A stretch of DNA of 64,000 nucleotides, taken from the NCBI GenBank assembly GCA_003250975.1, contig QKIY01000028.1:195248-259247 (forward strand), read 5' to 3'. The DNA comes from Gammaproteobacteria bacterium (GTDB lineage: Bacteria; Pseudomonadota; Gammaproteobacteria; Eutrophobiales; Eutrophobiaceae). Under the pieces are notes generated by a model. The model did not search any database. It had not been told where the DNA came from and saw only the letters and a list, made by a program, of their open reading frames with translations. Shown one piece after another: positions 8,262 to 62,898 of the stretch (its first letter is position 1; each line of letters begins with the position of its first letter). Both the position numbers and the translations under genes were made by a program.

Positions 8262-8263
8262 CC

Positions 8264-9535: not shown

Positions 9536-9541
9536 ACAATC

Positions 9542-9811
9542 ATGGCAAGCAGGACACTTACTATTATCAACAAGCTTGGTTTGCATGCACGGGCAGCTGC
9601 ACGGTTTGTACAGGTCGCCTCAGAGTTTGAGAGTGATATAAATGTGATCCACGGGAATAAGGAAGTTAACGGCAAGAGTATCATGGGAGTGATGATGCTT
9701 GCGGCCGGCAGGGGCACTGAAATAAAGCTAGTGGCCAACGGCCCTGACGAGGACAGCGCGCTGGATAAGCTTCAGGGACTAATAGAAGGCCGTTTTGGAG
9801 AAGACGAATGA
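9542..9811 (+). CDS. ptsH: phosphocarrier protein HPr/NPr
   Basis: His15 motif KLGLHARAAA and regulatory Ser46 motif NGKSIMGVM; 89 aa. Confidence 0.85.
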   Translation: MASRTLTIINKLGLHARAAARFVQVASEFESDINVIHGNKEVNGKSIMGVMMLAAGRGTEIKLVANGPDEDSALDKLQGLIEGRFGEDE

Positions 9812-13041: not shown

Positions 13042-13054
13042 CTGGTTACGGCGG

Positions 13055-13498
13055 CTAGCCGCTCCAGTGGCCCTTATTAAATGACTGGTAAAAGCGTTTA
13101 CAGGAACGCAGATAGGCGGCCAGGTGCATTTCCCTGAACCGTGTCAGCTCCCAATCCCTACCCGTCAATAAATGGCGGTATGAAGCACTGACCACGTAAA
13201 CCTCCGCCTGTACTGTATTATTTCCCTGCCAGTAGACTGGCAGACTTTTCCGTTCATAGAGCACATCCTCAAAGGCATCCAGAAGGACCATCGCCGGAGG
13301 ATCAACTTCGTGGTAAATAGTGCCGCAAACCTGATGACCGGGTTGCGGAAATATGCCGGGAAAGACCTCGTTGCGGATGCAGGAACGGGCAAAACCATGG
13401 AGTGTGGCTGGGTCTGAATCAAACGCCCGGCCGGTAACAGCCTGCATGACCTCCTGCAACTGCAGGGTGCCATAGGTAAAGACCGTGTTCATGAGCAA
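13055..13498 (-). CDS. gamma-glutamyl cyclotransferase-like (AIG2/GGCT fold) protein
   Basis: N-terminal VFTYGTL motif characteristic of the GGCT/AIG2 family; 147 aa. Confidence 0.65.
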   Translation of the reverse strand: MLMNTVFTYGTLQLQEVMQAVTGRAFDSDPATLHGFARSCIRNEVFPGIFPQPGHQVCGTIYHEVDPPAMVLLDAFEDVLYERKSLPVYWQGNNTVQAEVYVVSASYRHLLTGRDWELTRFREMHLAAYLRSCKRFYQSFNKGHWSG

Positions 13499-30491: not shown

Positions 30492-30500
30492 TGTGGATAA
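30492..30500 (-). promoter_or_regulatory. DnaA box TGTGGATAA (perfect TTATCCACA on minus strand) in rpmH-dnaA intergenic
   Basis: Exact 9-mer consensus match ~70 bp upstream of the dnaA GTG start. Confidence 0.6.
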
Positions 30501-30569: not shown

Positions 30570-31904
30570 GTGGCTGTTACTCCGTGGAAATACTGTCTTG
30601 AATGCCTGGAAGGAGAGCTGACACCACAACAATTCAACACCTGGATACGACCACTTCAAGCCATTGAGGACGATGCAGCCATTCACCTGCTTGCCCCGAA
30701 CCGCTTTGTCATGGACTGGGTTAATGACCAATACCTGTCGATGATAAAAGATTTCCTGAACCAACAGGATAATTCATCCAATCTCTCGGTGCTCGTTGAG
30801 GTCGGCAGTTCATCAAGACCGGTAAAAACTGACGATACATCTACTATAAGGCCCCAAGCGCCGGTTGTCAGGAACAGTAAGCATTCAAACAACCTGAACA
30901 AGGATTTCACCTTTGAAACGTTTGTCGAGGGCAAATCGAACCAGCTTGCCCGCGCAGCCTCCCTGCAGACATCACAGAATCCGGGTAATTCTTACAACCC
31001 CTTGTTTATCTATGGTGGCGTCGGTCTGGGCAAGACTCATCTTATGCACGCTATTGGTCACTCTATACTCCAGCATACCCCGGGAGCCAATATTGCCTAT
31101 CTGAATTCCGAGCGCTTCGTTGCAGACATGGTCAAGGCCCTGCAACACAACGCTATAAACGATTTCAAGCGCCATTACCGAAGCGTGGACGCCCTGTTAA
31201 TTGACGACATACAGTTTTTCGCCGGTAAGGAACGTTCACAGGAAGAATTTTTTCATACCTTCAACTATCTACTCGAAGGCCAGCATCAAATCATATTGAC
31301 CTGTGACCGATACCCAAAGGAAGTTAATGGTCTTGAGGAACGTCTCAAGTCCCGTTTCGGGTGGGGGCTTACCGTTGCCATCGAACCACCGGAACTTGAG
31401 ACTCGGGTGGCCATACTCCATATGAAGGCCGCCAGAAATAATTACACACTACCCGACGAGGTCGCCTTCTTTATTGCCAAGCGCTTCCGTTCAAATGTCC
31501 GGGATCTTGAAGGCGCACTGAATCGCGTTTTTGCACACTCTAACCTGACCGGCCAGGCCATTACGCTGGACTTTGTTCAGATGGCACTGAAGGACCTGCT
31601 GTTAATTCAGGACAAGCAAATCACCATTGAAAATATCAAGAAGATCGTGGCGGAATACTACAAGATCCGTGTCGCGGACCTGTTATCAAAGCGCCGTAAC
31701 CGGTCTGTTGCCCGCCCTAGGCAACTAGCCATGGCCCTGTCCAAAGAACTGACAGGTCACAGCCTACCGGAGATCGGGGATGCCTTTGGTGGCAGGGATC
31801 ATACAACCGTGCTACACGCGTGCAGGAAGATTACAGATCTGCGTAAAACTGACCAGAAGATTGAGGAAGACTATAATAATCTGGGTAAAATCCTTACTAC
31901 ATGA
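30570..31904 (+). CDS. dnaA: chromosomal replication initiator DnaA
   Basis: GTG start with AAGAGG SD; [31 protein letters not shown] domain I; AAA+ Walker [11 protein letters not shown]; C-terminal DNA-binding domain. Confidence 0.95.
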
Positions 31905-32051: not shown

Positions 32052-32060
32052 TTATCCACA
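32052..32060 (+). promoter_or_regulatory. DnaA box TTATCCACA (perfect) in AT-rich dnaA-dnaN intergenic
   Basis: Exact consensus within a 200-bp stretch of roughly 75% AT. Confidence 0.6.
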
Positions 32061-34320: not shown

Positions 34321-36735
<2,415 letters not shown>

Positions 36736-36918
36736 TTCACAGCGTACTGGCCAAGAACCAGGCCAGGAATTTAAAGACGGCAGGAGGCGGAAAGATAGGT
36801 AAAGATATCTCATCAGCTACGAAGTTACCCACCTAAACTATTCATTCTACACCCTTGGGACGCGATGGCAAGCGTAAACCCCTGATCACAAGCCCGGGTA
36901 TTTATCTCTCTAAACCGA

Positions 36919-36932
36919 TTGATATAGATCAA
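36919..36932. promoter_or_regulatory. FNR/CRP-family box 1: TTGATATAGATCAA (perfect TTGAT-N4-ATCAA)
   Basis: Exact match to the FNR consensus half-sites with 4-bp spacer. It lies within a larger palindrome ACCGATTGAT-ATAG-ATCAATCGGT (36914..36937). Confidence 0.6.
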
Positions 36933-36942
36933 TCGGTATCAA

Positions 36943-36956
36943 TTGATCTATATCAA
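36943..36956. promoter_or_regulatory. FNR/CRP-family box 2: TTGATCTATATCAA (perfect TTGAT-N4-ATCAA; inverted copy of box 1)
   Basis: Centre 24 bp downstream of box 1 centre; ~34 bp upstream of a TATATT -10 hexamer (36981..36986). Confidence 0.6.
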
Positions 36957-36980
36957 TGGAATTTTATTTTTTCGTTTGCG

Positions 36981-36986
36981 TATATT
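36981..36986 (+). promoter_or_regulatory. candidate -10 hexamer TATATT for the cytochrome cluster promoter
   Basis: Places the FNR box 2 centre near -43 and box 1 near -67 relative to a TSS around 36993, ~100 nt upstream of the first cytochrome gene. Confidence 0.35.
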
Positions 36987-37092
36987 GCAGCGCATATATA
37001 ATTATATTAAATCTAAGTTTCAAGGCGCACGCTGTCTCAAAGATGAAATGGGGCAAATGGGAATAACAACAATAACAAACGTGTAGAAAATA

Positions 37093-37707
37093 ATGCATTG
37101 GCTAAGAAAAATCTGGAATGCGCTACTTCGCCCAAGTTCCCGTTATTCTCTAGGGGCGGTTCTCCTGGTAGGCGCAGTTGGGGGTGTTCTGTTCTGGGGC
37201 GGATTTAACTGGGCGATGGAAATGACGAATACAGAGGCATTTTGTATCTCCTGCCATGAAATGGAAAACACCGTATATAAGGAATACAAAGAAAAGATCC
37301 ATTACTCCAACAATTCAGGTGTCCGGGCAGTCTGCGCTGACTGCCACGTGCCACATGATTGGGTTCACAAAGTGATTCGCAAGATCAAGGCCAGCAACGA
37401 GCTCTATCACAAGATTATCGGGACAATTGATACCGTTGAGAAATTCGAGGCCAAGCGATTGGAGCTTGCAAAGCATGTCTGGGAGGAAATGAAGGCTAAT
37501 GATTCCAAGGAATGCCGTAACTGTCACAGCATGACCGCTATGGATTTATCCAAGCAAAAACCCCGTGCCCGCGGTCAGCACGAAAGTGCCGCGGAAGAAA
37601 ATCAAACCTGCATCGATTGCCACAAGGGAATTGCCCATAAAGACATTCATAAGGAATTGGAGAAAGAGAAAGAGACTGAACCAACAGAAGAGGATTTTAT
37701 GTTGTGA
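37093..37707 (+). CDS. NapC/NirT/CymA-family membrane-anchored tetrahaem c-type cytochrome (quinol dehydrogenase)
   Basis: N-terminal TM helix (YSLGAVLLVGAVGGVLFWGGF) and four CxxCH motifs (CISCH, CADCH, CRNCH, CIDCH); 204 aa, typical size for this family. Confidence 0.85.
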   Translation: MHWLRKIWNALLRPSSRYSLGAVLLVGAVGGVLFWGGFNWAMEMTNTEAFCISCHEMENTVYKEYKEKIHYSNNSGVRAVCADCHVPHDWVHKVIRKIKASNELYHKIIGTIDTVEKFEAKRLELAKHVWEEMKANDSKECRNCHSMTAMDLSKQKPRARGQHESAAEENQTCIDCHKGIAHKDIHKELEKEKETEPTEEDFML

Positions 37708-37738
37708 TTGTTGACTCATGAAACTAAATGAAAGGTAG

Positions 37739-38713
37739 ATGAACATGAAACGCCGGGAAACACTAAGAAAAAGAAAGCTGTCTCAAGCGACTATTATTAT
37801 CGCTTCTTATTTAATTTCGACTGCGAGCGTACAGGCAATCGATTGGGGCAGCGTTCAAGGGAAAGATGTAACACTTTTTTATCCCGGACAGGCATCCTGG
37901 GAATGGGTGCTGACGAAGTCTGATCATAGTGGGGCTGATAAATTCAAGCAGGGAAAGAATTGCAAGGAATGTCACGAACGTGAAGAAAGCGATATCGGCA
38001 CAAAAATCGTAACGGGCAAGAAACTAGAGCCTGATCCTATTCCCGGCAAAAGCGGCTCGATCAAGGTAAACGTCAAAACCGCCCATGACAGTGAAAAGTT
38101 TTATGTCAGATTTGAGTGGTCTGAGACTCCCCAGGGCGATCAACCAATCATGGATAAAGATTTCGATTCCAAAATAACCGTGATGTTCGATGACGGCAAG
38201 GTACTGGCAGCCAAACGGGCCGGTTGTTGGGGCACATGCCATGACGACGCCGTGAATATGGCAAGCGCACCAACGGGAAAGGAGATCACCAAATACCTTG
38301 CCCAATCACGCACAAAACTCGGACGCAGCGGCGGCGGTGAGAATTATAAATCACCGTCCGAGCTTGATCAGTTACTGAATGAAGGAATATTCATGGAATT
38401 CTGGCAGGCAAAGCTTAATCAAGGTGCAGAACCAGTCGCCGTCGACGGATATATCCTGGATAAACGCCATAAGAATGACAATCCCTTGGTTGATGTCCAG
38501 GCGGAATTTAATGGCGGCAAATGGACTGTTACCATGAGCCGGAAACTGACAGTGTCAGAACCACATAGAAAAAATATCGCGGCCGGGCAAATCTATCCGG
38601 TAGGTTTTGCCCTGCATGATAATCATACCGAACACCGTTATCACTATATTTCACTCGAACATACATTCGCCCTGGACCAGGGTGAGGCGGATTTTATCGC
38701 TGTTAAGAAATAA
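37739..38713 (+). CDS. periplasmic c-type cytochrome, atypical (one CxxCH plus one CxxxCH), candidate electron shuttle
   Basis: Signal peptide ending VQA; CKECH near residue 75 and CWGTCH near residue 165. Otherwise a beta-rich soluble protein of 324 aa. Confidence 0.55.
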   Translation: MNMKRRETLRKRKLSQATIIIASYLISTASVQAIDWGSVQGKDVTLFYPGQASWEWVLTKSDHSGADKFKQGKNCKECHEREESDIGTKIVTGKKLEPDPIPGKSGSIKVNVKTAHDSEKFYVRFEWSETPQGDQPIMDKDFDSKITVMFDDGKVLAAKRAGCWGTCHDDAVNMASAPTGKEITKYLAQSRTKLGRSGGGENYKSPSELDQLLNEGIFMEFWQAKLNQGAEPVAVDGYILDKRHKNDNPLVDVQAEFNGGKWTVTMSRKLTVSEPHRKNIAAGQIYPVGFALHDNHTEHRYHYISLEHTFALDQGEADFIAVKK

Positions 38714-38718
38714 ACATT

Positions 38719-39714
38719 ATGGCTATGGGGGGCATAACAATGATTAATGCCAGTAATAGAAAAATGAAGCTATCAGGAGCCCTGCTTCTGTTAGGTATAT
38801 TCGGCAGCTTTCCGGTCTTCGCTGCCGATGGGGGCACCGATGAGGCGGGAAGAGAATACGCATTGAAAGGTGCAAAGACCTGCCTTAAATGCCACGACGA
38901 ATATCCGGTAAAGAATATTTTTCAGACCCCTCATGTGCAAAAGGCCGACAAGAGAACGCCGTTTGCAGCCCATGAATGTGAGTCCTGTCATGGTGCAAGC
39001 CCGGACCACCTGATAGAGCCGCCCAAAAAGGACCAGGGAGAAAAACATAAACCACCCCATCTCGTATTCGGGCTGAAATCGAAAAACTACAAGGTCTCAA
39101 GCGTTGATGATCAGAACAAAGTCTGTCTTGGGTGCCATGAATCGGGGATAAGGATGCACTGGCGCGGGAGCCAGCACCAGTCTGGTGACGTTCCTTGTGC
39201 GGCCTGTCATGCCATACACCAGCCCAAGGATCCGGTTCTGGTCAAGACCGACCAGGCAGAAGTCTGTTTTGCCTGCCATACCGACAAGCGCGCGCAGTTG
39301 CGCCGCCGTTCCAGACACCCAATCAGGGAAGGCAAGGTGGTATGTGCAGATTGTCACAATCCGCATGGCTCCGCCGGACGCACCTTGCTGGTCAAGAACA
39401 CCGTCAATGAAACCTGTTACCAGTGTCACGCTGAAAAGCGTGGCCCGTTCCTGTGGGAACACCAGCCGGTGAGGGAAGACTGCACAAATTGCCATAATCC
39501 GCACGGCAGCACACAGCAGAGGATGCTGGTACAAAGAACACCTTTCCTCTGCAATAACTGTCATTCGGAACGATTTCATCCGAGCACGCTCAGGGACGGG
39601 AGCGGACTGCCGCCTGTTGGTGCGGACAATCGGTTGCTGGGCAAGGGTTGCTTGAATTGCCATTCAAAGATTCACGGTTCCAATCATCCGTCTGGACCCA
39701 GGTTTACCAGATAA
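38719..39714 (+). CDS. decahaem c-type cytochrome, MtrA/MtoA/PioA/DmsE family
   Basis: Signal peptide (MKLSGALLLLGIFGSFPVFA) and ten CxxCH motifs in ~300 mature residues (CLKCH, CESCH, CLGCH, CAACH, CFACH, CADCH, CYQCH, CTNCH, CNNCH, CLNCH). Size and haem density match periplasmic decahaem conduits. The true start is probably an internal Met (38740 or 38764). Confidence 0.85.
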   Translation: MAMGGITMINASNRKMKLSGALLLLGIFGSFPVFAADGGTDEAGREYALKGAKTCLKCHDEYPVKNIFQTPHVQKADKRTPFAAHECESCHGASPDHLIEPPKKDQGEKHKPPHLVFGLKSKNYKVSSVDDQNKVCLGCHESGIRMHWRGSQHQSGDVPCAACHAIHQPKDPVLVKTDQAEVCFACHTDKRAQLRRRSRHPIREGKVVCADCHNPHGSAGRTLLVKNTVNETCYQCHAEKRGPFLWEHQPVREDCTNCHNPHGSTQQRMLVQRTPFLCNNCHSERFHPSTLRDGSGLPPVGADNRLLGKGCLNCHSKIHGSNHPSGPRFTR

Positions 39715-39777
39715 AGTTATGATGACCGAGCTGAATTTTTCATACAGAGATAAACAAGTTGTAACGGGGGCACTGTC

Positions 39778-42045
39778 ATGAACAAGTTAAAATACAATTT
39801 ATATGTATTGATAGCAGTCGCCTTCCTTTCCTCAAACAACGTCATTGCACAGGAGGAAGGGGGGTTTATGCTTGAGGAAGTTACAGAGGCACCAGCACCT
39901 GTGTATTTCAGTTTTGTTGAAGGTGGCGGCATCTATTCCAGTGCGGATTCCTTCAAATTCGGGGAATACAACGGCCTGGAAGAAGAGGGCTTTTACGCCA
40001 ATTTCAATTTCGGGGTGAGCCTATTGACCGCCTACGATGATAACAGTACGCAGTATGCGGATTTTTCAGGTACCAATGTAGGACTGGATAACCGCTCGTT
40101 GTACGGAGAATACGGTCAACAGGGAAGATACAGTGTCTATGCTGAATATGATCAAATACCCCACAACCGCCTCGATGATGCCCTCACACCCTTTGTCGGC
40201 GCCGGTACGAACAACCAGACCCTGCCGGCCAGCTTTTCTCCTACTGCCACCGTGACCACTCAATTGCCACTGCAATCAACTTTAAACCAGGTGGATGTCG
40301 AAACAGACCGCTATACGGCTGGCGCAGGTTTTACCTGGATCCCCCTGGAAAACTGGCAGTTAAGAGGAAACTACCACCATCAAATCAAGGACGGCACCGA
40401 GACCCTGGCCTCCATATTCGCCCAGGGTGGTGGCGGGAACCTTCGTTCATCGATACTCGTCGTGCCGGTTGATTACCAGTTCGATGAAGCTGATGTAGGC
40501 GTTGCCTATACAACCAAGCAATACCAGGTAGACCTCAGTTATCATTTTTCATACTTCAATAACTCAGAAGGAGCAGTGAACTGGCGCAACCCCTTCAATG
40601 AAGGCGGTGGTGGAACCGGCGCCCGATTCAATGATCCGGGCTTAATCGCAACGGCACCTGACAATACTGCCCACCAGGTGACATTGTCAGGCGGTTATAA
40701 CTTCGGGGCGACTTCCCGCCTATCGGGAAGCTTCTCCTGGGGACAGATGCTGCAGAGTGACAGTTTCTATAACTACAGCGTCAATCCGAGATTCCCCATC
40801 ACCACTCTGCTGCCGCGAGGCGATCTTGACGGGGAGATTCAAACTCTCTTTGCCAACCTGAATTTCACCACGCGGCCAATCAGGAATCTGAGCTTAGGGG
40901 CCCACTATACCTATGATGACAGGGACAACCAGTCCCCTCGGGATGTTTACTCGAGGATCCGGAACGATGCCTCCGCTCAGGCGGATCCTACCGATCCCAC
41001 CGATGAGAATAACAGGGTCCCGCGCCCCTACAGCCTGGAGCGGCATAAGGTTGAACTGGATGCTGACTATCGCCTGACCAGGATATTCAAGCTTGGGGCC
41101 GGCTATGAATTTGAACAAATAGACCGGGATTTATCGGAAGTCGATTCCACCCGGGAGCATACCGGTAAGGTCAAACTTTCCTTGACACCTTACGGCTCAA
41201 CAAGTGGCTGGATTAAATATGCCTTTTCAAGGCGCACCGGGGATGACTATGTCACCAACCTTCCATTCGTTGAAGGACAGACAGCAGCCCATATTGCGAC
41301 CCTGACATTCGATGAGTTGTTCGAGAATGATCCAACACTGCTTAAATGGTATATGAATGATCGGGATAAACATGATGTGAAAGGGAACATCAATTTTACC
41401 CCTGCTAACACGGTGTCATTAGGGTTGACCGGTGGCGTATCCCTTAGTGATTACAATGATTCAACAACCCTCGGACCATCGCTCGGATTACGCAAGGATA
41501 CCAGGGGCTATGGCACCTTCGATTTAGGACTGTATCCAACGGAAAATATTGATACCTATGCCTATGTGACATATGAGCGCATTCAGCGTGAACAGAATGG
41601 CTACGAACGTAACACCGTAGTTACCCCGCTATCCGTGCGTGACCCGGGCAGGTTCTGGGATTTAGATACCATTGACGATGTTTACTCACTCGGTACCGGT
41701 GTTAATATTCGTGACTTGATGGGCGGCAGGGTGGATATCAACGCAGATTACACATTTTCCTACGCTGACACCGAAATCGACCCTGTAGGCGGCACCACTC
41801 TACAACCCGTTTTCGATCTCACTCACCTGACGACGAGGACACACAGCTTTAACATCACGGGCGATTACAGGCTGAGAGATAATATGAAAGTAAGGCTTGC
41901 TTATCTCTTTGAATACTTCAAAACACGTGATTTTTCCCTTAGCCAGGTGTACCCGGATTCGTTAAATAACGTTCTTTTACTCGGTAACACCGATCCGAAT
42001 TACACAGCCCATGTAGGCTGGCTCTCATTCATTTATGAATTCTAG
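39778..42045 (+). CDS. outer-membrane beta-barrel, MtrB/MtoB/PioB-like (decahaem-associated porin)
   Basis: Signal peptide (MNKLKYNLYVLIAVAFLSSNNVIAQ). 755 aa rich in Y/G/N/D/T with alternating amphipathic beta-strand pattern. C-terminal ...SFIYEF with terminal Phe. Immediately follows the decahaem gene. Confidence 0.65.
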   Translation: MNKLKYNLYVLIAVAFLSSNNVIAQEEGGFMLEEVTEAPAPVYFSFVEGGGIYSSADSFKFGEYNGLEEEGFYANFNFGVSLLTAYDDNSTQYADFSGTNVGLDNRSLYGEYGQQGRYSVYAEYDQIPHNRLDDALTPFVGAGTNNQTLPASFSPTATVTTQLPLQSTLNQVDVETDRYTAGAGFTWIPLENWQLRGNYHHQIKDGTETLASIFAQGGGGNLRSSILVVPVDYQFDEADVGVAYTTKQYQVDLSYHFSYFNNSEGAVNWRNPFNEGGGGTGARFNDPGLIATAPDNTAHQVTLSGGYNFGATSRLSGSFSWGQMLQSDSFYNYSVNPRFPITTLLPRGDLDGEIQTLFANLNFTTRPIRNLSLGAHYTYDDRDNQSPRDVYSRIRNDASAQADPTDPTDENNRVPRPYSLERHKVELDADYRLTRIFKLGAGYEFEQIDRDLSEVDSTREHTGKVKLSLTPYGSTSGWIKYAFSRRTGDDYVTNLPFVEGQTAAHIATLTFDELFENDPTLLKWYMNDRDKHDVKGNINFTPANTVSLGLTGGVSLSDYNDSTTLGPSLGLRKDTRGYGTFDLGLYPTENIDTYAYVTYERIQREQNGYERNTVVTPLSVRDPGRFWDLDTIDDVYSLGTGVNIRDLMGGRVDINADYTFSYADTEIDPVGGTTLQPVFDLTHLTTRTHSFNITGDYRLRDNMKVRLAYLFEYFKTRDFSLSQVYPDSLNNVLLLGNTDPNYTAHVGWLSFIYEF

Positions 42046-42071
42046 GGGGTGTTTCTGATATTCAAGCTAAC

Positions 42072-42102
42072 ATGCATGACAGGCAGAATGCCTGTCATGC
42101 AT
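42072..42102. terminator. strong 13-bp-stem hairpin between convergent barrel gene and comF
   Basis: ATGCATGACAGGC-agaat-GCCTGTCATGCAT, perfect stem; no obvious T-tract on either side. Confidence 0.45.
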
Positions 42103-42144
42103 ATCTGAACAGAAATATCTTGCCGTTTTCCCCTGATTGACTGA

Positions 42145-42894
42145 TCACTCCTGACCTGGGCGTGCGCAGACCCAGGCATCAACCCGACTGGCCCCTGCCC
42201 GTTTTAAAGCCCGGGCGGCCTCGCGCAGGGTTGCCCCCGTCGTCATAACATCATCTATCAATGCCAGATGGCGGCCGCGCACATCCGCGTTGGCGGTTAG
42301 GGCAAAGGCGCCCCTCATGTTGCGGCGGCGTTGCGGCCTTTTCAGCCCGCTCTGGGCAATGGTCGGGCGCAGCCTTTGCAAAGTGTGGATTGTTGCCGGG
42401 ATTCCCGTGGCAGCGGAAAATGCCCTTGCCAGGCAGGCAGACTGGTTGTAACCGCGTTCCCGCAGCCGCCCCCTGTGCAATGGGATGGGGATCAGTTGCT
42501 CGGGCAGAACCAGGAGCCCGGCCTCAGCCAATCCATGGTAGGCAAGCGCGAAAAACCCGGCCAGCCCGGGGCGGGCGTGGAACTTCATCTCCTGTATCAC
42601 CCGGTCCACGGGATAGCTATAGCGGAAGGGCGCAATCACCACATCGAGAGCTGGTCCCGCGGCCCCCAGGCACTCGGCACAGATCTGACCATGGCAGTCC
42701 GGCAGGGCGCAGACGGGACAGGGGTCTCTATTAAGCGGGAGTTCCCGCAGGCAAGGCGTGCAAACGGGCAAGCGGCCTGAAGGGGCGTAGCACAAAAAGC
42801 AGCTACCTGGGATAGATTGGTCATTTATTAACCACCTGTTAAGACCATGCCGGGCCATTAACTTGACTGCCGTATCTTTCAGTGTAATCTCCAT
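42145..42894 (-). CDS. comF: ComF-family protein (phosphoribosyltransferase domain, N-terminal Cys4 zinc finger)
   Basis: CFLCYA...CTPC...CPVC...CAEC zinc-ribbon cysteines; C-terminal PRTase motif LALIDDVMTTGATL. ORF-track start 42996 would overlap bioB, so I trimmed to Met at 42894. Confidence 0.75.
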   Translation of the reverse strand: MEITLKDTAVKLMARHGLNRWLINDQSIPGSCFLCYAPSGRLPVCTPCLRELPLNRDPCPVCALPDCHGQICAECLGAAGPALDVVIAPFRYSYPVDRVIQEMKFHARPGLAGFFALAYHGLAEAGLLVLPEQLIPIPLHRGRLRERGYNQSACLARAFSAATGIPATIHTLQRLRPTIAQSGLKRPQRRRNMRGAFALTANADVRGRHLALIDDVMTTGATLREAARALKRAGASRVDAWVCARPGQE

Positions 42895-42931
42895 GCAGAC
42901 TTTATCCCGTTGACCAAGGACATCTTCCCTT

Positions 42932-43903
42932 ATGCAAAGCCCCGATACCTCAGGAGCAAATACTATACGCCATGACTGGTCTGAGGATGAAGTCACGGCC
43001 CTGTTTCAAACGCCATTTAATGACCTTGTCTTTCGCGCCCAGTCGCTCTATCGCCAGTTCTTTGACCCCAATGCGATCCAGCTCAGCACCCTGCTCAATA
43101 TCAAGACCGGCGGGTGCCCGGAGGATTGTGCTTATTGCCCCCAAAGCGCCCGCTATGCCACGGGTCTGAACGCCGAGCCACTGATGGACATTGCAGAGGT
43201 GAAATCGGCCGCTGTTCAGGCCAGGGAAAAGGGGGCCAGCCGGTTTTGCATGGGTGCCGCCTGGCGTAGCCCGAAGGACCGTGACCTAGACCAGGTGATC
43301 GAGATGATCCGCGTCGTCAAGGATCAGGGCCTGGAGGCTTGTGCAACGCTGGGGATGCTGACCAGGGAGCAGGCCGACAAGCTGAAATCCGCGGGCCTGG
43401 ATTTCTACAATCATAATCTGGATACTTCCGAGGCCTTTTACGAGACGATTATTTCAACCCGCACCTACCAGGATCGGCTGGACACCCTGGAGGCTGTCCG
43501 TGAGGCGGGCATGAAAGTCTGTTGTGGCGGTATCGTGGGCATGGGAGAAGGCCTGGCAGACCGGGTACAGATGCTGATCACACTGGCCAACCTGCCCAGT
43601 CACCCCGAGAGCGTCCCGATCAATCTGTTGGTCAGGGTGGAGGGCACGCCATTGGAAGATCAGGCCGATCTGGATCCCTTTGACATGGTACGGATGATCG
43701 CTGTTGCCCGTATCATGATGCCGGCATCCTATGTGCGCCTGTCCGCCGGGCGTAATGAAATGACGGATGAGTTGCAGGCCCTGTGTTTTCTCGCGGGCGC
43801 CAACTCGGTCTTCTATGGCGAGAAGTTGCTGACGACCGGCAATCCCGAATTTGCCCGGGACCAGTCATTATTCCGCCGTTTGGGATTAAAGGCCACGCAT
43901 TAA
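42932..43903 (+). CDS. bioB: biotin synthase
   Basis: Radical-SAM [11 protein letters not shown]; 323 aa. Confidence 0.93.
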
Positions 43904-47550: not shown

Positions 47551-48036
47551 GTGATATATCGTGTGCAAGGTTCCAACAAGACCCGCGTGGATTTTGTTGT
47601 GAAACCGAACCAGGCTATGTCCTGGCGTGCACAGATGACTATTTATTCGGGGGTAGCCGCAGTAACCATTACTATCGGGACCCTGTTTTACCTGAAGGGT
47701 CTGACCTTGATCTTGCCCTTTTCCGGATTAGAAATACTGGCGCTAGGCATCGCCCTGTATCTTTGCGCGTGGCGCAGCGGGATCCGCGAAGTGATCTCGA
47801 TAAGCAGTGACGAAATAGTTATTGAACGGGGGCGTACAGGCCCCGAGAATCGCCAGGTGTTCCAGCGTCCATGGGCAAAACTTGTATTAGAGCGTTCATG
47901 GAATAACTGGTATCCTAGCCGGCTGTTGCTCCGGTCGCATGGTAGGCAAACGGAAATCGGGGGGTTCCTCAACGAGCAGGAACGCCAGGGACTTGCGGAA
48001 TTGCTGGAGCAGGCCCTGGCTGACAAGACAGAATAA
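47551..48036 (+). CDS. DUF2244-type integral membrane protein of cytochrome oxidase clusters
   Basis: GTG start, two TM helices then a soluble tail; sits directly upstream of coxB as in other proteobacterial cox loci. Confidence 0.5.
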   Translation: MIYRVQGSNKTRVDFVVKPNQAMSWRAQMTIYSGVAAVTITIGTLFYLKGLTLILPFSGLEILALGIALYLCAWRSGIREVISISSDEIVIERGRTGPENRQVFQRPWAKLVLERSWNNWYPSRLLLRSHGRQTEIGGFLNEQERQGLAELLEQALADKTE

Positions 48037-48105
48037 TGAATTAGAAATTCTACGTTAAAATATTAAACAAAAATTTTTTACTACATTTTTGCCGAGGATA
48101 GCTGC

Positions 48106-49248
48106 ATGTTTTTCAATAAGCTGAGAAATTGCCTATTAGGGGCTGGAACGATGTTCTCGTTGTTATGGGCGGGGGCAGTAAATGCAGAGTGGGGGCTCAA
48201 TATGACACCGGGTGTAACCCCGGTCAGCCAGGATGTCTATGACCTGCACATGCTGATTCTATACGTGGTGACGGTCATTGGCATCATCGTCTTCAGTATC
48301 ATGTTCTGGTCAATTTTCCACCACCGCAAGTCAAAGGGCGCAGTTGCCGCCAAGTTCCACCACAGCACATTCGCCGAGATCGCCTGGACCATCGTCCCGG
48401 TGTTGATCCTAGTCGGCATGGCCGTTCCGGCAACCAAGACACTAATTAAAATGGAACAGACAGGTGATGCCGATATCACCGTCAAGATCACGGGCTATCA
48501 GTGGAAATGGAAATACGACTATCTTAACGAAGACCTCAGTTTCTTCAGCGTTCTGGCCCAGGACAGTAACGAGGCGCGCCAGCTGGGTTCAAACATAGAT
48601 CCGGCAAGCGTGGATCATTACCTGCTTAATGTGGATCAGCCAATCGTCCTCCCGGTCAACAAGAAAGTCCGCTTGCTGACCACGGCCAATGACGTTATTC
48701 ACGCCTGGTGGGTGCCGGCCCTGGGCTGGAAGCGTGATGCCATTCCCGGCTTTATTAATGATAACTGGGCCATCATCGAAAAAGAGGGGACTTATCGCGG
48801 CCAATGTGCGGAGCTGTGTGGCAAGGATCACGGCTTTATGCCCATCGTGGTCAAGGCTGTTCCGGAAGACGAATATGAAGCTTGGATAGAGGATATGAAA
48901 CTGGCACAAGCCGAGGCCGCGGCGAGCGGTGAGCGCGAGTGGAGCAAGGATGAACTGATGGCCAAGGGCAAGGACCTGTATGCCAAGAACTGTGCGGCCT
49001 GCCACATGGCCGAGGGGCAGGGGGTCCCGGGGATGTTCCCTTCATTGGCGGGCAGCCCGATTGTAGCGACCGCAGAGGGTTTGCCTGATCACATAGACAG
49101 GCTCCTCAATGGTAAGAACCTCATGCCCGCCTTCGGTGAACAGTTGTCTGATGCGGATATTGCCGCCGTCATCACCTTTGAGCGTAATGCCTGGGGTAAC
49201 GATACAGGCGACGTGGTTCAGCCGAAAGATATCAAGGCTGCACGTTAA
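48106..49248 (+). CDS. coxB: cytochrome c oxidase subunit II with fused C-terminal cytochrome c domain
   Basis: CuA ligands (H...CAELCGKDHGFM) and C-terminal CAACH haem c motif; 380 aa. Confidence 0.93.
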   Translation: MFFNKLRNCLLGAGTMFSLLWAGAVNAEWGLNMTPGVTPVSQDVYDLHMLILYVVTVIGIIVFSIMFWSIFHHRKSKGAVAAKFHHSTFAEIAWTIVPVLILVGMAVPATKTLIKMEQTGDADITVKITGYQWKWKYDYLNEDLSFFSVLAQDSNEARQLGSNIDPASVDHYLLNVDQPIVLPVNKKVRLLTTANDVIHAWWVPALGWKRDAIPGFINDNWAIIEKEGTYRGQCAELCGKDHGFMPIVVKAVPEDEYEAWIEDMKLAQAEAAASGEREWSKDELMAKGKDLYAKNCAACHMAEGQGVPGMFPSLAGSPIVATAEGLPDHIDRLLNGKNLMPAFGEQLSDADIAAVITFERNAWGNDTGDVVQPKDIKAAR

Positions 49249-49296
49249 GCAGGAATTCTTGTTCAGTTATTAAAAATTTATAAAGAGGATAGACAA

Positions 49297-50898
49297 ATGA
49301 GCGAAGCAGTCATCCACGAAGAACACCACGATGACCACGACCACAAGCCAACCGGCATCGGCCGCTGGTTGTTCTCAACCAATCATAAAGACATCGGCAC
49401 CATGTACCTCGTGTTCGCACTGGTTATGTTTTTCATCGGCGGTGCCATGGCGTTGGTGATCCGTGCAGAACTTTTTCAGCCTGGTTTACAATACGTAGAT
49501 CCGGTGTTTTTCAACTCAATGACCACTGTGCATGCACTGGTCATGATTTTCGGTGTGGTGATGCCCGCCGGCGTTGGTCTTGCCAACTGGCTGATCCCGA
49601 TGATGATTGGTTCGCCGGACATGGCCCTGCCCCGGCTGAATAACATGAGTTTCTGGATACTGCCGTTTGCATTCGCGTTGTTGCTTTCCACGATGTTTAT
49701 GGAAGGCGGCGCACCGAACGGAGGCTGGACCATGTACCCGCCGCTGACCCTGCAACTTGGCAACGCTTTTCCCTTCCTAATTTTTGCGGTCCACTTTCTG
49801 GGTATTTCATCGATCATGGGCGCAATTAACATTATTGCCACCGTCTTTAATATGCGCGCACCCGGCATGACCTTTATGAGGCTGCCGCTTTTTGTCTGGA
49901 CCTGGATCATCACGGCATTCCTTTTGATCGCCTCATTGCCGGTTCTTGCGGGCGCTGTGACCATGATGCTGACAGACAAGTTTTTTGGTACCAGTTTCTT
50001 CAGTGCGGCCGGTGGTGGTGATCCGGTAATGTTCCAGCATGTTTTCTGGTTTTTTGGACATCCCGAGGTGTATATCCTGATTCTGCCGGCTTTTGGCATC
50101 GTCTCCCAGATTATACCGACCTTTGCCCGTAAGCCGCTGTTCGGTTATGAGTCTATGGTGTATGCCACGGCATCGATCGCCTTCCTGTCATTCTTTGTCT
50201 GGGCGCACCATATGTTTACCGTGGGCATGCCGTTGGCAGGCGAACTGTTTTTCATGTATGCCACCATGTCGATTGCTGTGCCCACCGGGGTAAAGATCTT
50301 CAACTGGGTCGCCACCATGTGGCGAGGCTCCATGACCTTCGAAACCCCGATGCTTTTCTCCCTCGCCTTCGTGATCCTGTTTTCCATTGGCGGTTTCTCG
50401 GGGCTGATGCTTGGCATAACGCCAGCCGACTTCCAGTATCACGATACTTATTTCGTGGTGGCACATTTCCATTATGTGCTGGTTACCGGCGCAGTGTTCG
50501 CATTGTTTGCCGGTACCTATTACTGGCTACCCAAGTGGACGGGGCATATGTATGACGAGACGCTGGGCAAATGGCACTTCTGGCTGTCGACCATATCAGT
50601 CAACGTCCTGTTCTTCCCGCAGCACTTCCTTGGGCTGGCCGGTATGCCGCGCCGTATTCCGGACTACAGTGTACAGTTTGCCGATTTCAATATGATCTCG
50701 AGTATCGGCGGTTTTGCCTTCGGCTTTAGCCAGTTGCTGTTTCTTTATGTTGTCATCAAGTGTGTGAGGGGTGGCTCCAAGGTAAGCGACCAGGTATGGG
50801 AAGGTGCCCATGGCTTGGAATGGACATTGCCATCTCCTCCGCCGTTCCATTCATTTACCACACCGCCTCAGGTGACTGACGCGACGGCGCATTCATAG
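49297..50898 (+). CDS. coxA: cytochrome c oxidase subunit I
   Basis: 12-TM haem-copper oxidase core (WFFGHPEVYILILPAFG, HHMFTVG); 533 aa. Confidence 0.97.
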   Translation: MSEAVIHEEHHDDHDHKPTGIGRWLFSTNHKDIGTMYLVFALVMFFIGGAMALVIRAELFQPGLQYVDPVFFNSMTTVHALVMIFGVVMPAGVGLANWLIPMMIGSPDMALPRLNNMSFWILPFAFALLLSTMFMEGGAPNGGWTMYPPLTLQLGNAFPFLIFAVHFLGISSIMGAINIIATVFNMRAPGMTFMRLPLFVWTWIITAFLLIASLPVLAGAVTMMLTDKFFGTSFFSAAGGGDPVMFQHVFWFFGHPEVYILILPAFGIVSQIIPTFARKPLFGYESMVYATASIAFLSFFVWAHHMFTVGMPLAGELFFMYATMSIAVPTGVKIFNWVATMWRGSMTFETPMLFSLAFVILFSIGGFSGLMLGITPADFQYHDTYFVVAHFHYVLVTGAVFALFAGTYYWLPKWTGHMYDETLGKWHFWLSTISVNVLFFPQHFLGLAGMPRRIPDYSVQFADFNMISSIGGFAFGFSQLLFLYVVIKCVRGGSKVSDQVWEGAHGLEWTLPSPPPFHSFTTPPQVTDATAHS

Positions 50899-59293: not shown

Positions 59294-60433
59294 TTAAAAA
59301 TCGTAAGAGACCCCAAACATAATACGATAATCGTCTTTTTCGGGGATCGTGCCATCATCGGCTTCAGTGGGGTTATTGATGTGGTCCCAAATGAATGAAA
59401 TGTCTAGGTCAAAGGACTTGATTAGGTCGATTTCAACCGAGGTGACAAGGTGGTGCGTATAGCCACCTGATTCCTGGTTTACCCAGGTTATCTGGTAATT
59501 GAATAGATAATCGATCCAGTTGGTTAGCTCGGTATCAAAATCCGTTCCCAGGACCAGCGCGGGAGTGGTTTCCTTGTCGTCCTCACCCGGCAGTACGCTT
59601 TCAAAACGGGTTTCCTGGTAACCTGGGCCGCCGACAATGCCCCATTCCGTCTTGCTGGTGTCAATAAGGGTATAACCTACGCCGGTACCGATAGTAACTT
59701 TGTAATCGATGTTTTGAAAAGGATCGCGAAAATATTCTCCAAACAGTGGGCGAACGAAAAAGCGGCGTGTAATGAAAATATCGTATGAGCCGGTCACGCG
59801 GTGATTGTTACTGGTCTCGTCTCCCGAGGTTGAAGATATATTTCCGATATAGTCCATGATATATCGTGAAAAGGATGTCTCTCTCTTGATCTTTGTCTTG
59901 GCTGTATAATCTACCTGGTCGGTATTGCCGCTCCTGACATTGAGGCCAAGTGTAAATTTGGCCGTCCAGAAATCTTTCTCTTCTTCTCCACCAGTGATAA
60001 ACGAGACGATAAGTGATCGATCGTATTCCTCGACGCGCCCGTCATTTGTGACGACAATCTTGTCAGGTGTGATTTCAAAATAACCATATACGTTCCCGTT
60101 ACCTTCCAGCTTCGCACTGCCTGGAATGTGCGTCTTGACATAGCTGACATCTTCCCAGTCGATATTCAGTAAACCCAGTTTGTCACTGTCAAATTCAAGC
60201 GACTTGTTGTAAAGGCCCTTAATCTCCCCCTTGAGCCATTCGCCGGAGGTCAGCTGCACCCAGTCATACTTGGTCGCTACGGGCCGTGCGTTCTCCCAGG
60301 CGGCCGCGGCATCAGGGTTTGCTTCATCGGGATCAGAGAGAGTATTGCCCGGAGTGTTCCCGGCATATGCACAGGAAATAAAAAGCAGGCAGATTAGTAA
60401 TAACGATGTATAAAAAAAACGTTCAGACGACAC
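59294..60433 (-). CDS. DUF481-family outer-membrane beta-barrel protein
   Basis: Signal peptide, Y/G/T-rich strands, C-terminal ...VSYDF. Confidence 0.6.
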   Translation of the reverse strand: MSSERFFYTSLLLICLLFISCAYAGNTPGNTLSDPDEANPDAAAAWENARPVATKYDWVQLTSGEWLKGEIKGLYNKSLEFDSDKLGLLNIDWEDVSYVKTHIPGSAKLEGNGNVYGYFEITPDKIVVTNDGRVEEYDRSLIVSFITGGEEEKDFWTAKFTLGLNVRSGNTDQVDYTAKTKIKRETSFSRYIMDYIGNISSTSGDETSNNHRVTGSYDIFITRRFFVRPLFGEYFRDPFQNIDYKVTIGTGVGYTLIDTSKTEWGIVGGPGYQETRFESVLPGEDDKETTPALVLGTDFDTELTNWIDYLFNYQITWVNQESGGYTHHLVTSVEIDLIKSFDLDISFIWDHINNPTEADDGTIPEKDDYRIMFGVSYDF

Positions 60434-61110: not shown

Positions 61111-62898
61111 ATGGACCCCTCGGTATCTATTTCCCCGGCTGAAGAAAAGCTTGGCTTCAATTATGTCCTCGACATGTTGCACAAGGACGGCATTATATCC
61201 AATCAGCAGTATGCGCAGGTAAAAAAACTTATCCCCACACCAGACGAAACTGTCCACCCGCTTGTGCTGATCGCCGACCAGGGGTTGAAGAGCGACACGA
61301 AGCCAGCCTATCCCCTTACACTGGAAAAACTGACCAGTTGGCTGGCGGAAAAGACAGGTTCTCCCTATCTGCGTATAGATCCCCTGAAAATCGATGTTAA
61401 CAACGTTACAAGGGCCATTCCGCAGGCCTACGCAAGCAAGCTTCATATATTGCCTGTCGAAGTGAATGCCAGAGAACTGGTGGTTGCTACCTGTGAGCCA
61501 TTTATCAGCGGCTGGGAAAACGAGCTTTCCAGAAGCACCAAGCTCCATATCAAACGTGTTATTGCAAACCCTAAAGATATCGAACGTTACCTCGTCGAAT
61601 TCTACGGTATCAGCCGCTCCATATTCGGTGCTGTCAAGAGCAAGGCCGCCGACGCCATATCGAAGATACAGAATTTTGAACAGCTGGTGGAAGTGGGCAA
61701 GGCGGGCGAACCTGATGCCAATGATCAGCATATCGTCAGTATCGTAGACTGGTTGTTGCAATATGCTTTTGAACAGCGCGCTAGTGATATCCATCTTGAG
61801 CCGCGGCGTGATAAGGGCAAGGTCAGGTTTCGTATAGATGGCAAGATGCAACAGGTACACGAGTTCCCCATGATCATCATGGGTGCTATCGCAAGCAGGC
61901 TTAAATCCCTGGGCCGGATGGATGTTACTGACAAGCGCAGGCCACAGGATGGCAGGATTAAGACAAAAACACCCGCGGGCACAGAGGTGGAAATGCGCCT
62001 TTCAACCATGCCGACCGCGTTTGGTGAGAAACTGGTGATCAGGATTTTCAATCCTGAGATGTTGTTCAAGGATTTTACGGCACTAGGTTTTACCCGGCAC
62101 GACTTGATGTGCTGGAAGGAAATGACCGGTCACCCACACGGCATCATCCTGGTGACCGGACCCACGGGCTCAGGGAAAACTACCACGCTTTATTCCGCAT
62201 TGAAGGACCTGTCACGGCCGGAGTTGAATATCTGTTCTATTGAGGACCCGATCGAGATGGTAGACCCGGAGTTCAACCAGATGCAGGTACAGAACAAGAT
62301 CGGAGTGGACTTTGCCTCGGGCGTCAGGACACTGCTAAGGCAGGACCCGGACATCATCATGGTTGGGGAGATTCGTGATTACGAAACCGCGGAGATCGCC
62401 ATACAGGCAGCATTAACAGGGCACCTGGTATTGTCCAGCCTGCACACGAACGATGCGCCCTCTTCCATTACACGTCTCGTCGATATCGGGGCACAGCCCT
62501 TCCTGATAAGTGCGACCTTACTTGGGGTAATGGCACAACGGTTGGTGCGAACGTTATGCCCGCATTGCAAGCAACATGAAACACTGGATAAAGCCTTGTG
62601 GGACAAGCTGGTTTCACCGGCTAAAGTAAAGTTGCCCGAAAAAACCTGCAAGCCGGTCGGTTGCGATGAATGCAGGCACACCGGCTATTACGGGCGTATC
62701 GGGATATTTGAAGCGCTTCCAGTCGGCAAGACCCTGAGGCAACTGATCACCGCGAATGCGGACATCGAGACCATACGCGCTACTGCCGTCAAGCAGGGTA
62801 TGTGGTCCTTGCGCCTGAGCGGGGCCCAGAAGGTGGCCGAAGGGCTCACGACACTGGAGGAGATCTATTCCGTTATTCCCCCGGACGACGCTGGTTAA
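61111..62898 (+). CDS. GspE/PilB-family secretion ATPase with N-terminal extension (orphan)
   Basis: T2SSE_N-like domain (ILPVEVNARELVVATCEPF), Walker A GPTGSGKTT, Asp box, Walker B, His box, tetracysteine zinc motif CPHC...CDEC; 595 aa. Confidence 0.85.
   Translation: MDPSVSISPAEEKLGFNYVLDMLHKDGIISNQQYAQVKKLIPTPDETVHPLVLIADQGLKSDTKPAYPLTLEKLTSWLAEKTGSPYLRIDPLKIDVNNVTRAIPQAYASKLHILPVEVNARELVVATCEPFISGWENELSRSTKLHIKRVIANPKDIERYLVEFYGISRSIFGAVKSKAADAISKIQNFEQLVEVGKAGEPDANDQHIVSIVDWLLQYAFEQRASDIHLEPRRDKGKVRFRIDGKMQQVHEFPMIIMGAIASRLKSLGRMDVTDKRRPQDGRIKTKTPAGTEVEMRLSTMPTAFGEKLVIRIFNPEMLFKDFTALGFTRHDLMCWKEMTGHPHGIILVTGPTGSGKTTTLYSALKDLSRPELNICSIEDPIEMVDPEFNQMQVQNKIGVDFASGVRTLLRQDPDIIMVGEIRDYETAEIAIQAALTGHLVLSSLHTNDAPSSITRLVDIGAQPFLISATLLGVMAQRLVRTLCPHCKQHETLDKALWDKLVSPAKVKLPEKTCKPVGCDECRHTGYYGRIGIFEALPVGKTLRQLITANADIETIRATAVKQGMWSLRLSGAQKVAEGLTTLEEIYSVIPPDDAG

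Follow-up and report, generated by a model that had tools for sequence, protein, structure and literature searches.

We analyzed a 64-kb window of one contig (QKIY01000028.1) from an uncultured gammaproteobacterium; statements below about the whole window reach no further than this stretch. At 37093–42045 it carries four open reading frames (ORFs), all on the plus strand and separated by gaps of 31, 5, and 63 nt, exactly where a first-pass annotation made from the letters alone had placed a co-directional, tightly spaced set of genes for an electron conduit across the outer membrane. ORF1 (37093–37707, 204 aa) encodes an inner-membrane tetrahaem quinol/quinone oxidoreductase of the NapC/NirT family (NirT/ImoA/CymA-like); ORF2 (37739–38713, 324 aa), a secreted periplasmic dihaem c-type cytochrome resembling NirB (cytochrome c-552), with an EB_dh/DOMON beta-sandwich; ORF3 (38719–39714, 331 aa as called), a periplasmic decahaem cytochrome of the DmsE/MtrA/MtoA family; and ORF4 (39778–42045, 755 aa), an outer-membrane beta-barrel sheath of the MtrB/MtoB/PioB family. 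Direct counting of the haem motifs gave four CxxCH in ORF1, one CxxCH and one CxxxCH in ORF2, ten CxxCH in ORF3, and none in ORF4. Sec-type signal peptides without a lipobox are present on ORF2, ORF3, and ORF4. All four parts of the hardware are thus in place, each a member of the family named, and as the family scores lie far beyond the curated cut-offs, chance is not an issue.

The DmsE/MtrA-family model TIGR03508 matched ORF3 over its whole length (1–258 of 258) with 299.3 bits, against a cut-off of 192.2, and the protein aligned end to end with MtrA (6R2Q_A; E = 2.3e-77, 45% identity), including all ten haem motifs. Its signal peptide ends in ...FPVFA, and it aligns with MtrA from residue 45. 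The likely start codon is M8, at 38740, which has a GGAGG 8 nt upstream and gives a 324-aa product, matching the 324-aa call on another contig; 38740 is therefore probably the true start. The barrel gene adjoins this decahaem gene, which ends 63 nt 5' of it. ORF4 contains no cysteine, ends in Phe, and scored 467.3 bits with TIGR03509 (cut-off 240.05; model positions 10–662 of 662) and 492.3 bits with PF11854 (1–635 of 635). Its AlphaFold2 (AF2) model, built with 40 homologues (predicted local distance difference test [pLDDT] 86.5, predicted template-modeling score [pTM] 0.78), has 26 long strands and a helix at residues 59–65 lying between strands 1 and 2 (residues 42–54 and 71–83). In Foldseek the sole strong match was MtrB (6R2Q_B; E = 6.5e-46, template-modeling [TM] score 0.90, root mean square deviation 3.6 Å), and the runner-up folds were 22-strand TonB-dependent receptors with TM scores of ~0.4. 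MtrB itself has 26 strands, and its cap helix sits between the first two (PMC7198977). The ORF4 product is thus predicted to form a 26-strand barrel wide enough for the decahaem, as anticipated in the first-pass annotation, which had expected a wide barrel of ~26–28 strands. The readings that would have undone that annotation, namely a generic porin or FadL-type protein for ORF4 and an enzymatic multihaem protein for ORF3, were ruled out by the curated hidden Markov models, the alignments to solved structures, and the barrel model.

An N-terminal CxxC is given as the signature of the MtrB of Shewanella-type metal reducers (Wee et al. 2014, as cited in PMC12175506). This motif is absent from ORF4. 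It is likewise absent from the barrels encoded beside true MtrC genes at four related loci (L020, L038, L046, and L080), and as a marker of direction it was uninformative over the 59 barrels compared.

ORF1 has an N-terminal hydrophobic segment at residues ~19–38, a transmembrane anchor, and was matched by PF03264 with 259.8 bits (cut-off 24.1), in keeping with the NapC/NirT membership first assigned to it. The NapC/NirT subfamily model TIGR02161 gave 298.4 bits, just under its cut-off of 310.6, and the equivalog models for NapC (NF007906; 276.5 bits, cut-off 349) and TorC (276.6 bits, cut-off 478.2) were also below threshold. Because of these scores, and because no nap or tor genes were found near ORF1, it is a member of the family that is neither NapC nor TorC. 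It shares 64% identity with the NirT half of a NirT-NirB fusion encoded in a nirS cluster. We describe ORF1 as NirT-like, its likeness to ImoA being one of family. The earlier label of "CymA-like" was correct as to a NapC/NirT tetrahaem protein, which is NirT-like, as is the ImoA of Sideroxydans, rather than specifically CymA-like.

The middle cytochrome, ORF2, had been called atypical. It is no orphan oddity, as it belongs to a conserved family of EB_dh-fold dihaem proteins related to NirB. PF09459 (EB_dh) matched it with 113.9 bits (cut-off 33.3). Among 102 homologues, both haem motifs (C75xxC78H79 and C163xxxC167H168) and the residues M174, H293, and H302 were 99%–100% conserved, and H63 was conserved in 94%. 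Because these invariant ligand candidates (H63, M174, H293, and H302) exceed the need of two covalent haems, a third, noncovalent haem is possible. The best folds found by Foldseek for the AF2 model of ORF2 (pLDDT 78.6) were EbdC (2IVF_C; 3.8e-9) and NxrC (7B04_C; 1.6e-8), which are the haem b gamma subunits of ethylbenzene dehydrogenase and nitrite oxidoreductase, followed by CBM9 and DOMON beta-sandwiches. The identification of ORF2 as a gamma subunit of a type II DMSO-reductase-like molybdoenzyme was rejected, as TIGR03477 gave 38.5 bits against a cut-off of 169.85; genes for a molybdopterin alpha subunit or an Fe-S beta subunit were not found beside ORF2. Also disfavoured was a role as extracellular substitute for MtrC, because ORF2 has a Sec signal without lipobox, occurs together with true MtrC elsewhere, and in other genomes is fused to a membrane-anchored NirT.

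A profile search of the whole library with the ORF2 family recovered 169 cluster representatives at E ≤ 1e-30 and 429 at E ≤ 1e-10, several of which consist of an N-terminal NapC/NirT tetrahaem domain joined by Ala/Pro/Glu-rich tethers to one or two EB_dh domains. The isolate Parasedimentitalea denitrificans has one such fusion (WP_167685786.1), and another, of 924 aa, recurs on independent contigs; as, in addition, the linkers are tethers and not signal peptides, read-through artefacts were discounted. Two of the fusion genes, one of them with two EB_dh domains, could be placed on contigs (L087, 8001–9800, and L088, 3603–6377). Each is the next gene after nirS in a cd1 nitrite-reductase cluster that has nirE/C/F/D/L/G/H/J/N-type genes, and beyond it come a cupredoxin gene and genes for haem d1 biogenesis. 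The tetrahaem NirT, the dihaem NirB, the order nirS-nirT-nirB, and a fused NirTB have been noted previously (PMC13086519), the gene pair of nitrite-reductase clusters having been known since 1991 (Jungst et al. 1991, as cited in PMC13086519). ORF2 shares 38% identity with each NirB domain of one such nirS-cluster fusion (P0322), and is related to NirB as represented by the domains of these fusions. Judged by their sequences, ORF1 and ORF2 are a NirT/NirB-type pair, and because the two domains occur naturally in one polypeptide (Rosetta-stone evidence), the fusions indicate that ORF1 and ORF2 work together. Within the family, the subfamily of ORF2 is a branch of its own, and the nirS-linked NirB proteins form a more distant one.

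A scan of one genome per species detected 242 loci with a relative of ORF2, the best 80 of which were analyzed in the locus counts given here. Their hosts are Gamma- and Alphaproteobacteria, nearly all of them metagenome-assembled genomes (MAGs), and include Methyloprofundus, Methylomarinum, Thioalkalivibrio, Thiohalomonas, Chromatiaceae, Arenicellales, and Lysobacterales, as well as Rhodospirillales, Magnetospirillaceae, Telmatospirillum, Acetobacteraceae, and Caulobacteraceae; the isolates among them include Rehaibacterium terrae DSM 25897 and Marinobacterium aestuariivivens. The gene order nirT-like, EB_dh, decahaem, barrel was found by strict criteria in 39 of the 80 loci and in four more where it was masked by over-long ORF calls (at least 43 in all), and a further nine, cut by contig ends, are consistent with it. 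The cymA-like and EB_dh genes are adjacent in ~63 of the 80. No nirS-like gene was found within 10 kb in any of these 80 loci.

Two other arrangements were observed around the same pair. In L020, L038, L046, and L080 it lies beside a decahaem/barrel pair and a gene for a decahaem protein of ~700 aa (L020, 3537–5801, minus strand; L038, 6943–9135; L046, 29–2074; L080, 7213–9357). A lipobox is present in three of these four proteins, the ORF of L046 being cut by the contig end, and the two that were scanned (L020 and L038) scored 545–559 bits with the OmcA/MtrC model TIGR03507. These loci look like full MtrCAB modules served by the same inner-membrane pair. In five others an ORF of ~415 aa with a single haem motif comes after the pair, or in L077 after the EB_dh gene by itself (L029, 7170–8405; L056, 4999–6270; L058, 4172–5425; L064, 10988–12223; L077, 5896–7293). 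These ORFs had no match in Pfam or NCBIfam. They fit the signature of Cyc2 (AxPxFAR..-CxxCH-4 aa-PxL, length >365 aa; PMC8406198), reading ATPAFARST-x3-CxxCH-x4-PxL, and they look like Cyc2-like fused cytochrome-porins. By gene context, then, the subfamily closest to ORF2 is tied to three kinds of outer-membrane electron conduit.

Several cassettes carry additional genes. Genes for heptahaem cytochromes anchored to the membrane at the C terminus closely follow the EB_dh gene in L022 (11014–11982) and L046 (6554–7600) and lie a few kilobases upstream of it in L070 (6713–7801); the window has none. Second, longer EB_dh-like ORFs (~450–510 aa, 84–104 bits) lie inside the cassettes of Thioalkalivibrio and Thiohalomonas MAGs (L035, 8044–9414, and L051, 13845–15374). 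In M. aestuariivivens NBRC 111756 (L016, 10915–14178), the decahaem and barrel genes are seemingly split into several ORFs, through either decay or sequencing errors. Elsewhere, an EB_dh dihaem gene stands beside a gene for a pyrroloquinoline quinone (PQQ)-dependent dehydrogenase (L053, 8109–9863) or for a molybdopterin subunit of the xanthine/aldehyde oxidase type (L033, 6679–9039), contexts which hint that the EB_dh carrier also serves other periplasmic dehydrogenases.

The operon occupies a segment of 5.4 kb (36736–42144, from the gyrB stop at 36735 to the comF stop) that comprises a promoter region, the four genes, and a terminator hairpin. Beyond it lies a ComF-like phosphoribosyltransferase gene (42145–42996, minus strand) and then bioB/F/H/C/D. 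The closest genome in the species set, a gammaproteobacterial MAG (L002), is collinear with the window over 27.6–49.3 kb and carries the module at the same site. In three other relatives (L083/L084, L085, and L086), which share the common order mnmE-yidC-rnpA-dnaA-dnaN-recF-gyrB-comF-bioB...cox, the site is empty and gyrB directly abuts comF (L083, 11409–11420); their GyrB proteins are 87% (L083), 81% (L085), and 76% (L086) identical to that of the window. Because gyrB abuts comF in these syntenic relatives, the module is a true insertion, and the "insertion after gyrB" proposed from the window alone was borne out. In our reading, the operon was acquired horizontally. As evidence of foreign origin, base composition was set aside, since the signal is weak: GC content at third codon positions is 0.48–0.575 in the module and 0.55–0.69 in its neighbours, with similar values in upstream genes. 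In L085, an IS1595-family transposase and several small ORFs lie between comF and bioB (12276–13265), and the gyrB-comF-bioB junction seems to tolerate insertions.

The nucleotide identity of the module between the window and L002 is ~75%, close to that of gyrB (75.6%). The EB_dh, decahaem, and barrel genes of L002 are intact, and its nirT/cymA-like gene (9474–9960) is a pseudogene, in which two CH motifs are followed by in-frame TAA and TAG stops, the frame is shifted by +1, and ~110 nt are deleted. L083, which lacks the module, has a GyrB 97.6% identical to that of L002. The simplest history is a single acquisition in the ancestor of the window genome, L002, and L083, followed by vertical descent, loss in L083, and incipient decay in L002.

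Upstream of ORF1 are two perfect TTGAT-N4-ATCAA boxes of the FNR/FixK/Dnr type, TTGATATAGATCAA (36919–36932) and its exact reverse complement TTGATCTATATCAA (36943–36956), located 167 and 143 bp from the gene. They are the only perfect sites of this kind in the 64 kb (0.12 expected). Of 63 related loci, 24 have a box with no more than one mismatch in the 350 bp before the nirT-like gene, with a density of 0.97 per kb upstream of the cassettes against 0.078 per kb in the whole loci, an enrichment of ~12-fold. The center of the second box (36949.5) is 34 bp upstream of that of a candidate −10 hexamer, TATATT (36981–36986), a geometry roughly of class II; a second candidate −10, TATAAT, is at 36997–37002. 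Both hexamers were read directly from the sequence. A scan with the sigma-70 consensus was uninformative, as promoter-like sites were no commoner than in shuffles and the candidate −10 was not listed among them. In Rhodopseudomonas palustris, pioABC has two FixK boxes, one of which (FixK I) is centered at −44.5, and is induced anaerobically (PMC3050613). The operon of the window is probably induced at low oxygen, and the two perfect boxes support the conditional, anoxic lifestyle suggested in the first-pass annotation.

Together the two boxes can also form a 16-bp AT-rich hairpin (36918–36957), which is followed by the T-run TTTTATTTTTT. At the other end of the operon, where the barrel gene and comF converge, their stop codons enclose a likely terminator with a perfect 14-bp stem, CATGCATGACAGGC...GCCTGTCATGCATG (42072–42102). 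The 99-nt intergenic RNA after ORF4 folds at −35.5 kcal/mol (z = −4.3), and none of 200 shuffles was as stable. No riboswitch or other known RNA was found, Rfam giving no match at E ≤ 1 over 36.5–42.4 kb, the 357-nt leader included.

The remainder of the window helps to define what surrounds the conduit. Outside the operon it holds no multihaem ORF, and it has no nirS-like ORF; a small class I cytochrome is not encoded within 36.7–42.1 kb, and no high-potential iron-sulfur protein (HiPIP) ORF was found at the operon. No MtrC/OmcA was detected in the operon or elsewhere in the 64 kb. TIGR03507 members were readily found at other loci, and this search was therefore capable of a positive; the earlier statement that MtrC is missing holds for the window, to which it is limited. 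The gene dnaA lies at 30570–31904, flanked by perfect DnaA boxes at 30492–30500 (minus strand) and 32052–32060 (plus strand), and the cumulative GC skew reaches its minimum at ~32–33 kb, because of which the replication origin is probably here and the operon ~5 kb away from it. Window-wide, DnaA boxes were not enriched (15 found, 13.9 expected), the notable ones being the two perfect boxes beside dnaA.

The other genes of the window are housekeeping genes, among them kdsDC, lptCAB, rpoN, ptsN, hprK, rapZ, ptsP, mgtE, polA, hisAF, tatC, and those of glycosyltransferases. At 6745–9130, rpoN is followed by a ptsN-hprK-rapZ cluster, the HPr kinase/phosphorylase gene being one that is not universal in gammaproteobacteria. 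The terminal oxidase encoded at 47551–50898, first annotated as aa3, is instead of the caa3 type, with a cytochrome c domain fused to the C terminus of CoxB; a gene for a DUF2244 membrane protein precedes it, an arrangement kept in all relatives examined. A DUF481 outer-membrane protein (59294–60433, minus strand) and an ATPase of the type II secretion/type IV pilus kind with an MshEN domain (61111–62898, plus strand) are also encoded.

Taken together, the four proteins suggest the following path. ORF1, anchored in the inner membrane, would exchange electrons with the quinol/quinone pool, and ORF2, as its dedicated soluble partner, would ferry them over the periplasm and relay them to or from ORF3. 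The decahaem would thread the ORF4 barrel, so that its last haem is exposed at the cell surface. Because the operon has no MtrC-type surface cytochrome, we expect an extracellular partner that is soluble or has access to the mouth of the barrel, candidates being Fe(II), Fe(III) chelates, or the quinones of humic substances and dissolved organic matter (DOM). The relay role of ORF2 is suggested by the fusions, the gene order, and the conservation of the protein. The nearest precedent by experiment is that of Sideroxydans, in which PmcA, encoded beside the NirT-like imoA, interacts experimentally with ImoA and MtoA, and MtoD does not (PMC13390432).

The conduit is probably reversible. Sequence does not determine the direction of flow, and a preference for uptake is unproven. 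We give an even chance to the reading in which the operon links the quinone pool to the surface by a complete electron path that leans slightly to uptake, oxidizing extracellular Fe(II) or reduced organics as Mto and Pio do. Three observations incline it that way: the lack of MtrC in the operon and window, the occurrence of the same pair (or its EB_dh gene) ahead of the five Cyc2-like genes, and the fact that Mto and Pio, the closest characterized architectures, take up electrons. A number of points weigh against it. In vivo, ImoA oxidizes quinol and can substitute for CymA (PMC9600427), and the NirT/NirB ancestry of the pair is one of a path from quinol to periplasm. MtoA and PioA do not fall into function-specific clades (PMC8805035), the same pair flanks the MtrCAB modules of four loci, and a promoter of the FNR type fits anaerobic respiration no less well than uptake. 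Other points bear on function more generally. Partners such as MtrC or nirS could lie beyond the 64 kb, and the hairpin formed by the boxes, with its T-run, could simply terminate gyrB. With the cymA orthologue reduced to a pseudogene in L002 and the module missing altogether from L083, part of the clade can do without the trait and is losing it.

In a rival reading the same hardware would run outward, with ORF1 oxidizing quinol under hypoxia and the electrons leaving by way of ORF2 and the decahaem for soluble acceptors outside the cell (Fe(III) chelates, flavins, humic/DOM quinones, or Mn, for example), as an auxiliary anaerobic respiration of an otherwise aerobic (caa3) organism. This is a serious possibility, somewhat short of an even chance. 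NapC/NirT proteins, including NirT, CymA, and even the ImoA of an Fe(II) oxidizer, act as quinol dehydrogenases; the promoter region has its FNR-type boxes; the pair lies beside OmcA/MtrC modules in L020, L038, L046, and L080; and MtoA can work reductively, MtoA+MtrB being treated as not direction-specific in a preprint by Olmsted (bioRxiv 10.1101/2022.03.26.485925). However, neither the operon nor the window encodes MtrC/OmcA, the characterized MtrAB homologues without MtrC (Mto and Pio) are uptake systems, and the pair is also linked to genes of the Cyc2-like, Fe(II)-oxidase type. ORF4 lacks the CxxC of metal reducers as well, although in this data set that signature does not discriminate. 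Alternatively, the conduit might be only the trans-membrane half of a larger system with its terminal partner elsewhere in the genome, whether MtrC/OmcA, a DmsAB-type extracellular reductase, or a cd1 nitrite reductase, which, if fed via the NirB-like protein, would couple extracellular uptake to denitrification. The homology of ORF1 and ORF2 to the NirT and NirB of nirS clusters fits such a system, and the box type is the one used by the Dnr/ANR regulators of nir genes; the EB_dh dihaem genes beside PQQ- and molybdopterin-type dehydrogenase genes (L053 and L033) suggest a modular carrier, and our view is limited to 64 kb of the genome. Nevertheless, we consider a missing terminal partner improbable, given that nirS-like genes were lacking within 10 kb of all 80 loci, that in most loci the cassette is tightly spaced and self-contained, and that nothing in the window supports it. 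Least probable of all, and in our opinion very unlikely, is that the module is an evolutionary relic, disused and being lost in this lineage, to which the pseudogene of L002, the loss in L083, and the seemingly fragmented copy of M. aestuariivivens would testify. Against this, all ORFs of the window are intact and have kept their haem motifs, signal peptides, and terminal Phe; the window and L002 copies have diverged at the rate of gyrB, with three of the four genes undisrupted; and neither the perfect regulator boxes nor the terminator hairpin has been lost.

A conduit of this general kind is known. MtoA+MtrB pairs without MtrC in uncultured Gammaproteobacteria, methanotrophs included, have already appeared in surveys (bioRxiv 10.1101/2022.03.26.485925), and such clusters are also known to have NapC/NirT partners (PMC6295460). 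The new detail is the NirB-like dihaem periplasmic link, not previously tied to these conduits: in the literature, of which our coverage was incomplete, we found no description of an EB_dh-fold, NirB-like cytochrome as a conserved periplasmic part of MtoAB, MtrCAB, or Cyc2 cassettes, the known periplasmic carriers being MtoD, PmcA, Cytc1/2, PioC, FccA, CctA, and PdsA. MtoAB/MtrAB conduits are common in metagenome surveys, and in Sideroxydans the carrier was revised only in 2026, to PmcA rather than MtoD. The EB_dh dihaem protein would be a second, unrelated solution, and a widespread one (at least 242 species-level genomes), inherited from the NirT-NirB pair of nitrite reductases, occurring with three outer-membrane modules, and sometimes even fused to its partner.

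A broader proposal, which we regard as speculative and rather unlikely in its full form, is that the EB_dh NirB-like dihaems are a general, hitherto unrecognized family of periplasmic adaptors joining NirT-type oxidoreductases to at least four terminal modules, which may be MtoAB-type conduits, full MtrCAB, Cyc2-type fused cytochrome-porins, and cd1 nitrite reductase. A third, noncovalent haem in the ancestral EB_dh pocket would perhaps tune the potential for reversible flow, and in this organism the cassette could link extracellular uptake to transfer of the denitrification type. The carrier provides a hypothesis testable with purified proteins and a marker gene for better annotation of extracellular electron transfer operons, and cultured organisms that have it exist, e.g., R. 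terrae DSM 25897. The presence, decay, or absence of the module among near-identical genomes amounts to a natural experiment on how much the trait contributes to fitness.

Among known systems, the Mto system of Sideroxydans lithotrophicus ES-1 (MtoA, MtoB, ImoA/"CymA", PmcA, and MtoD) resembles that of the window in having a decahaem in an MtoB barrel without MtrC, a NapC/NirT tetrahaem protein closer to NirT than to CymA (PMC9600427), and a small periplasmic cytochrome, encoded beside the tetrahaem protein, that links to MtoA (PmcA; PMC13390432). The link itself is different, a 324-aa EB_dh-fold dihaem protein in the window and a monohaem class I cytochrome in Mto. The operon of the window has no homologue of MtoD or PmcA, its order is nirT-like, EB_dh, mtoA-like, mtoB-like, and its host is an uncultured gammaproteobacterium. 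PioABC of R. palustris TIE-1 is likewise an MtrAB-type conduit without MtrC, and has two FixK/FNR-type boxes upstream, one of them of class II (PMC3050613). Its carrier, however, is a HiPIP (PioC), PioA has a long N-terminal extension where ORF3 is of MtrA length (324–331 aa), and a quinol dehydrogenase gene is missing from the pio operon.

MtrCAB-CymA of Shewanella (6R2Q) shares the decahaem, with ORF3 45% identical to MtrA, the barrel, as the ORF4 model superposes on MtrB, and a NapC/NirT quinol dehydrogenase. It differs in that the operon of the window lacks MtrC/OmcA and has a barrel without the N-terminal CxxC, whereas in Shewanella the carriers are FccA and CctA (PdsA in Vibrio and Aeromonas) and cymA is unlinked. 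The type II DMSO-reductase gamma subunits (EbdC, NxrC, SerC, and ClrC) have in common with ORF2 the EB_dh/DOMON beta-sandwich and are, like it, haem-binding electron-transfer modules; they hold one noncovalent haem b and form part of alpha-beta-gamma molybdoenzymes, unlike ORF2 with its two covalent haem c sites. In the NirT-NirB pair of nirS clusters (nirSTB of Stutzerimonas/P. stutzeri), as in the window, a tetrahaem NapC/NirT gene is followed by a dihaem gene, and control of the FNR/Dnr type is expected in both, but the pair in the window does not lie beside nirS, and its downstream partner is a decahaem/barrel pair of the outer membrane.

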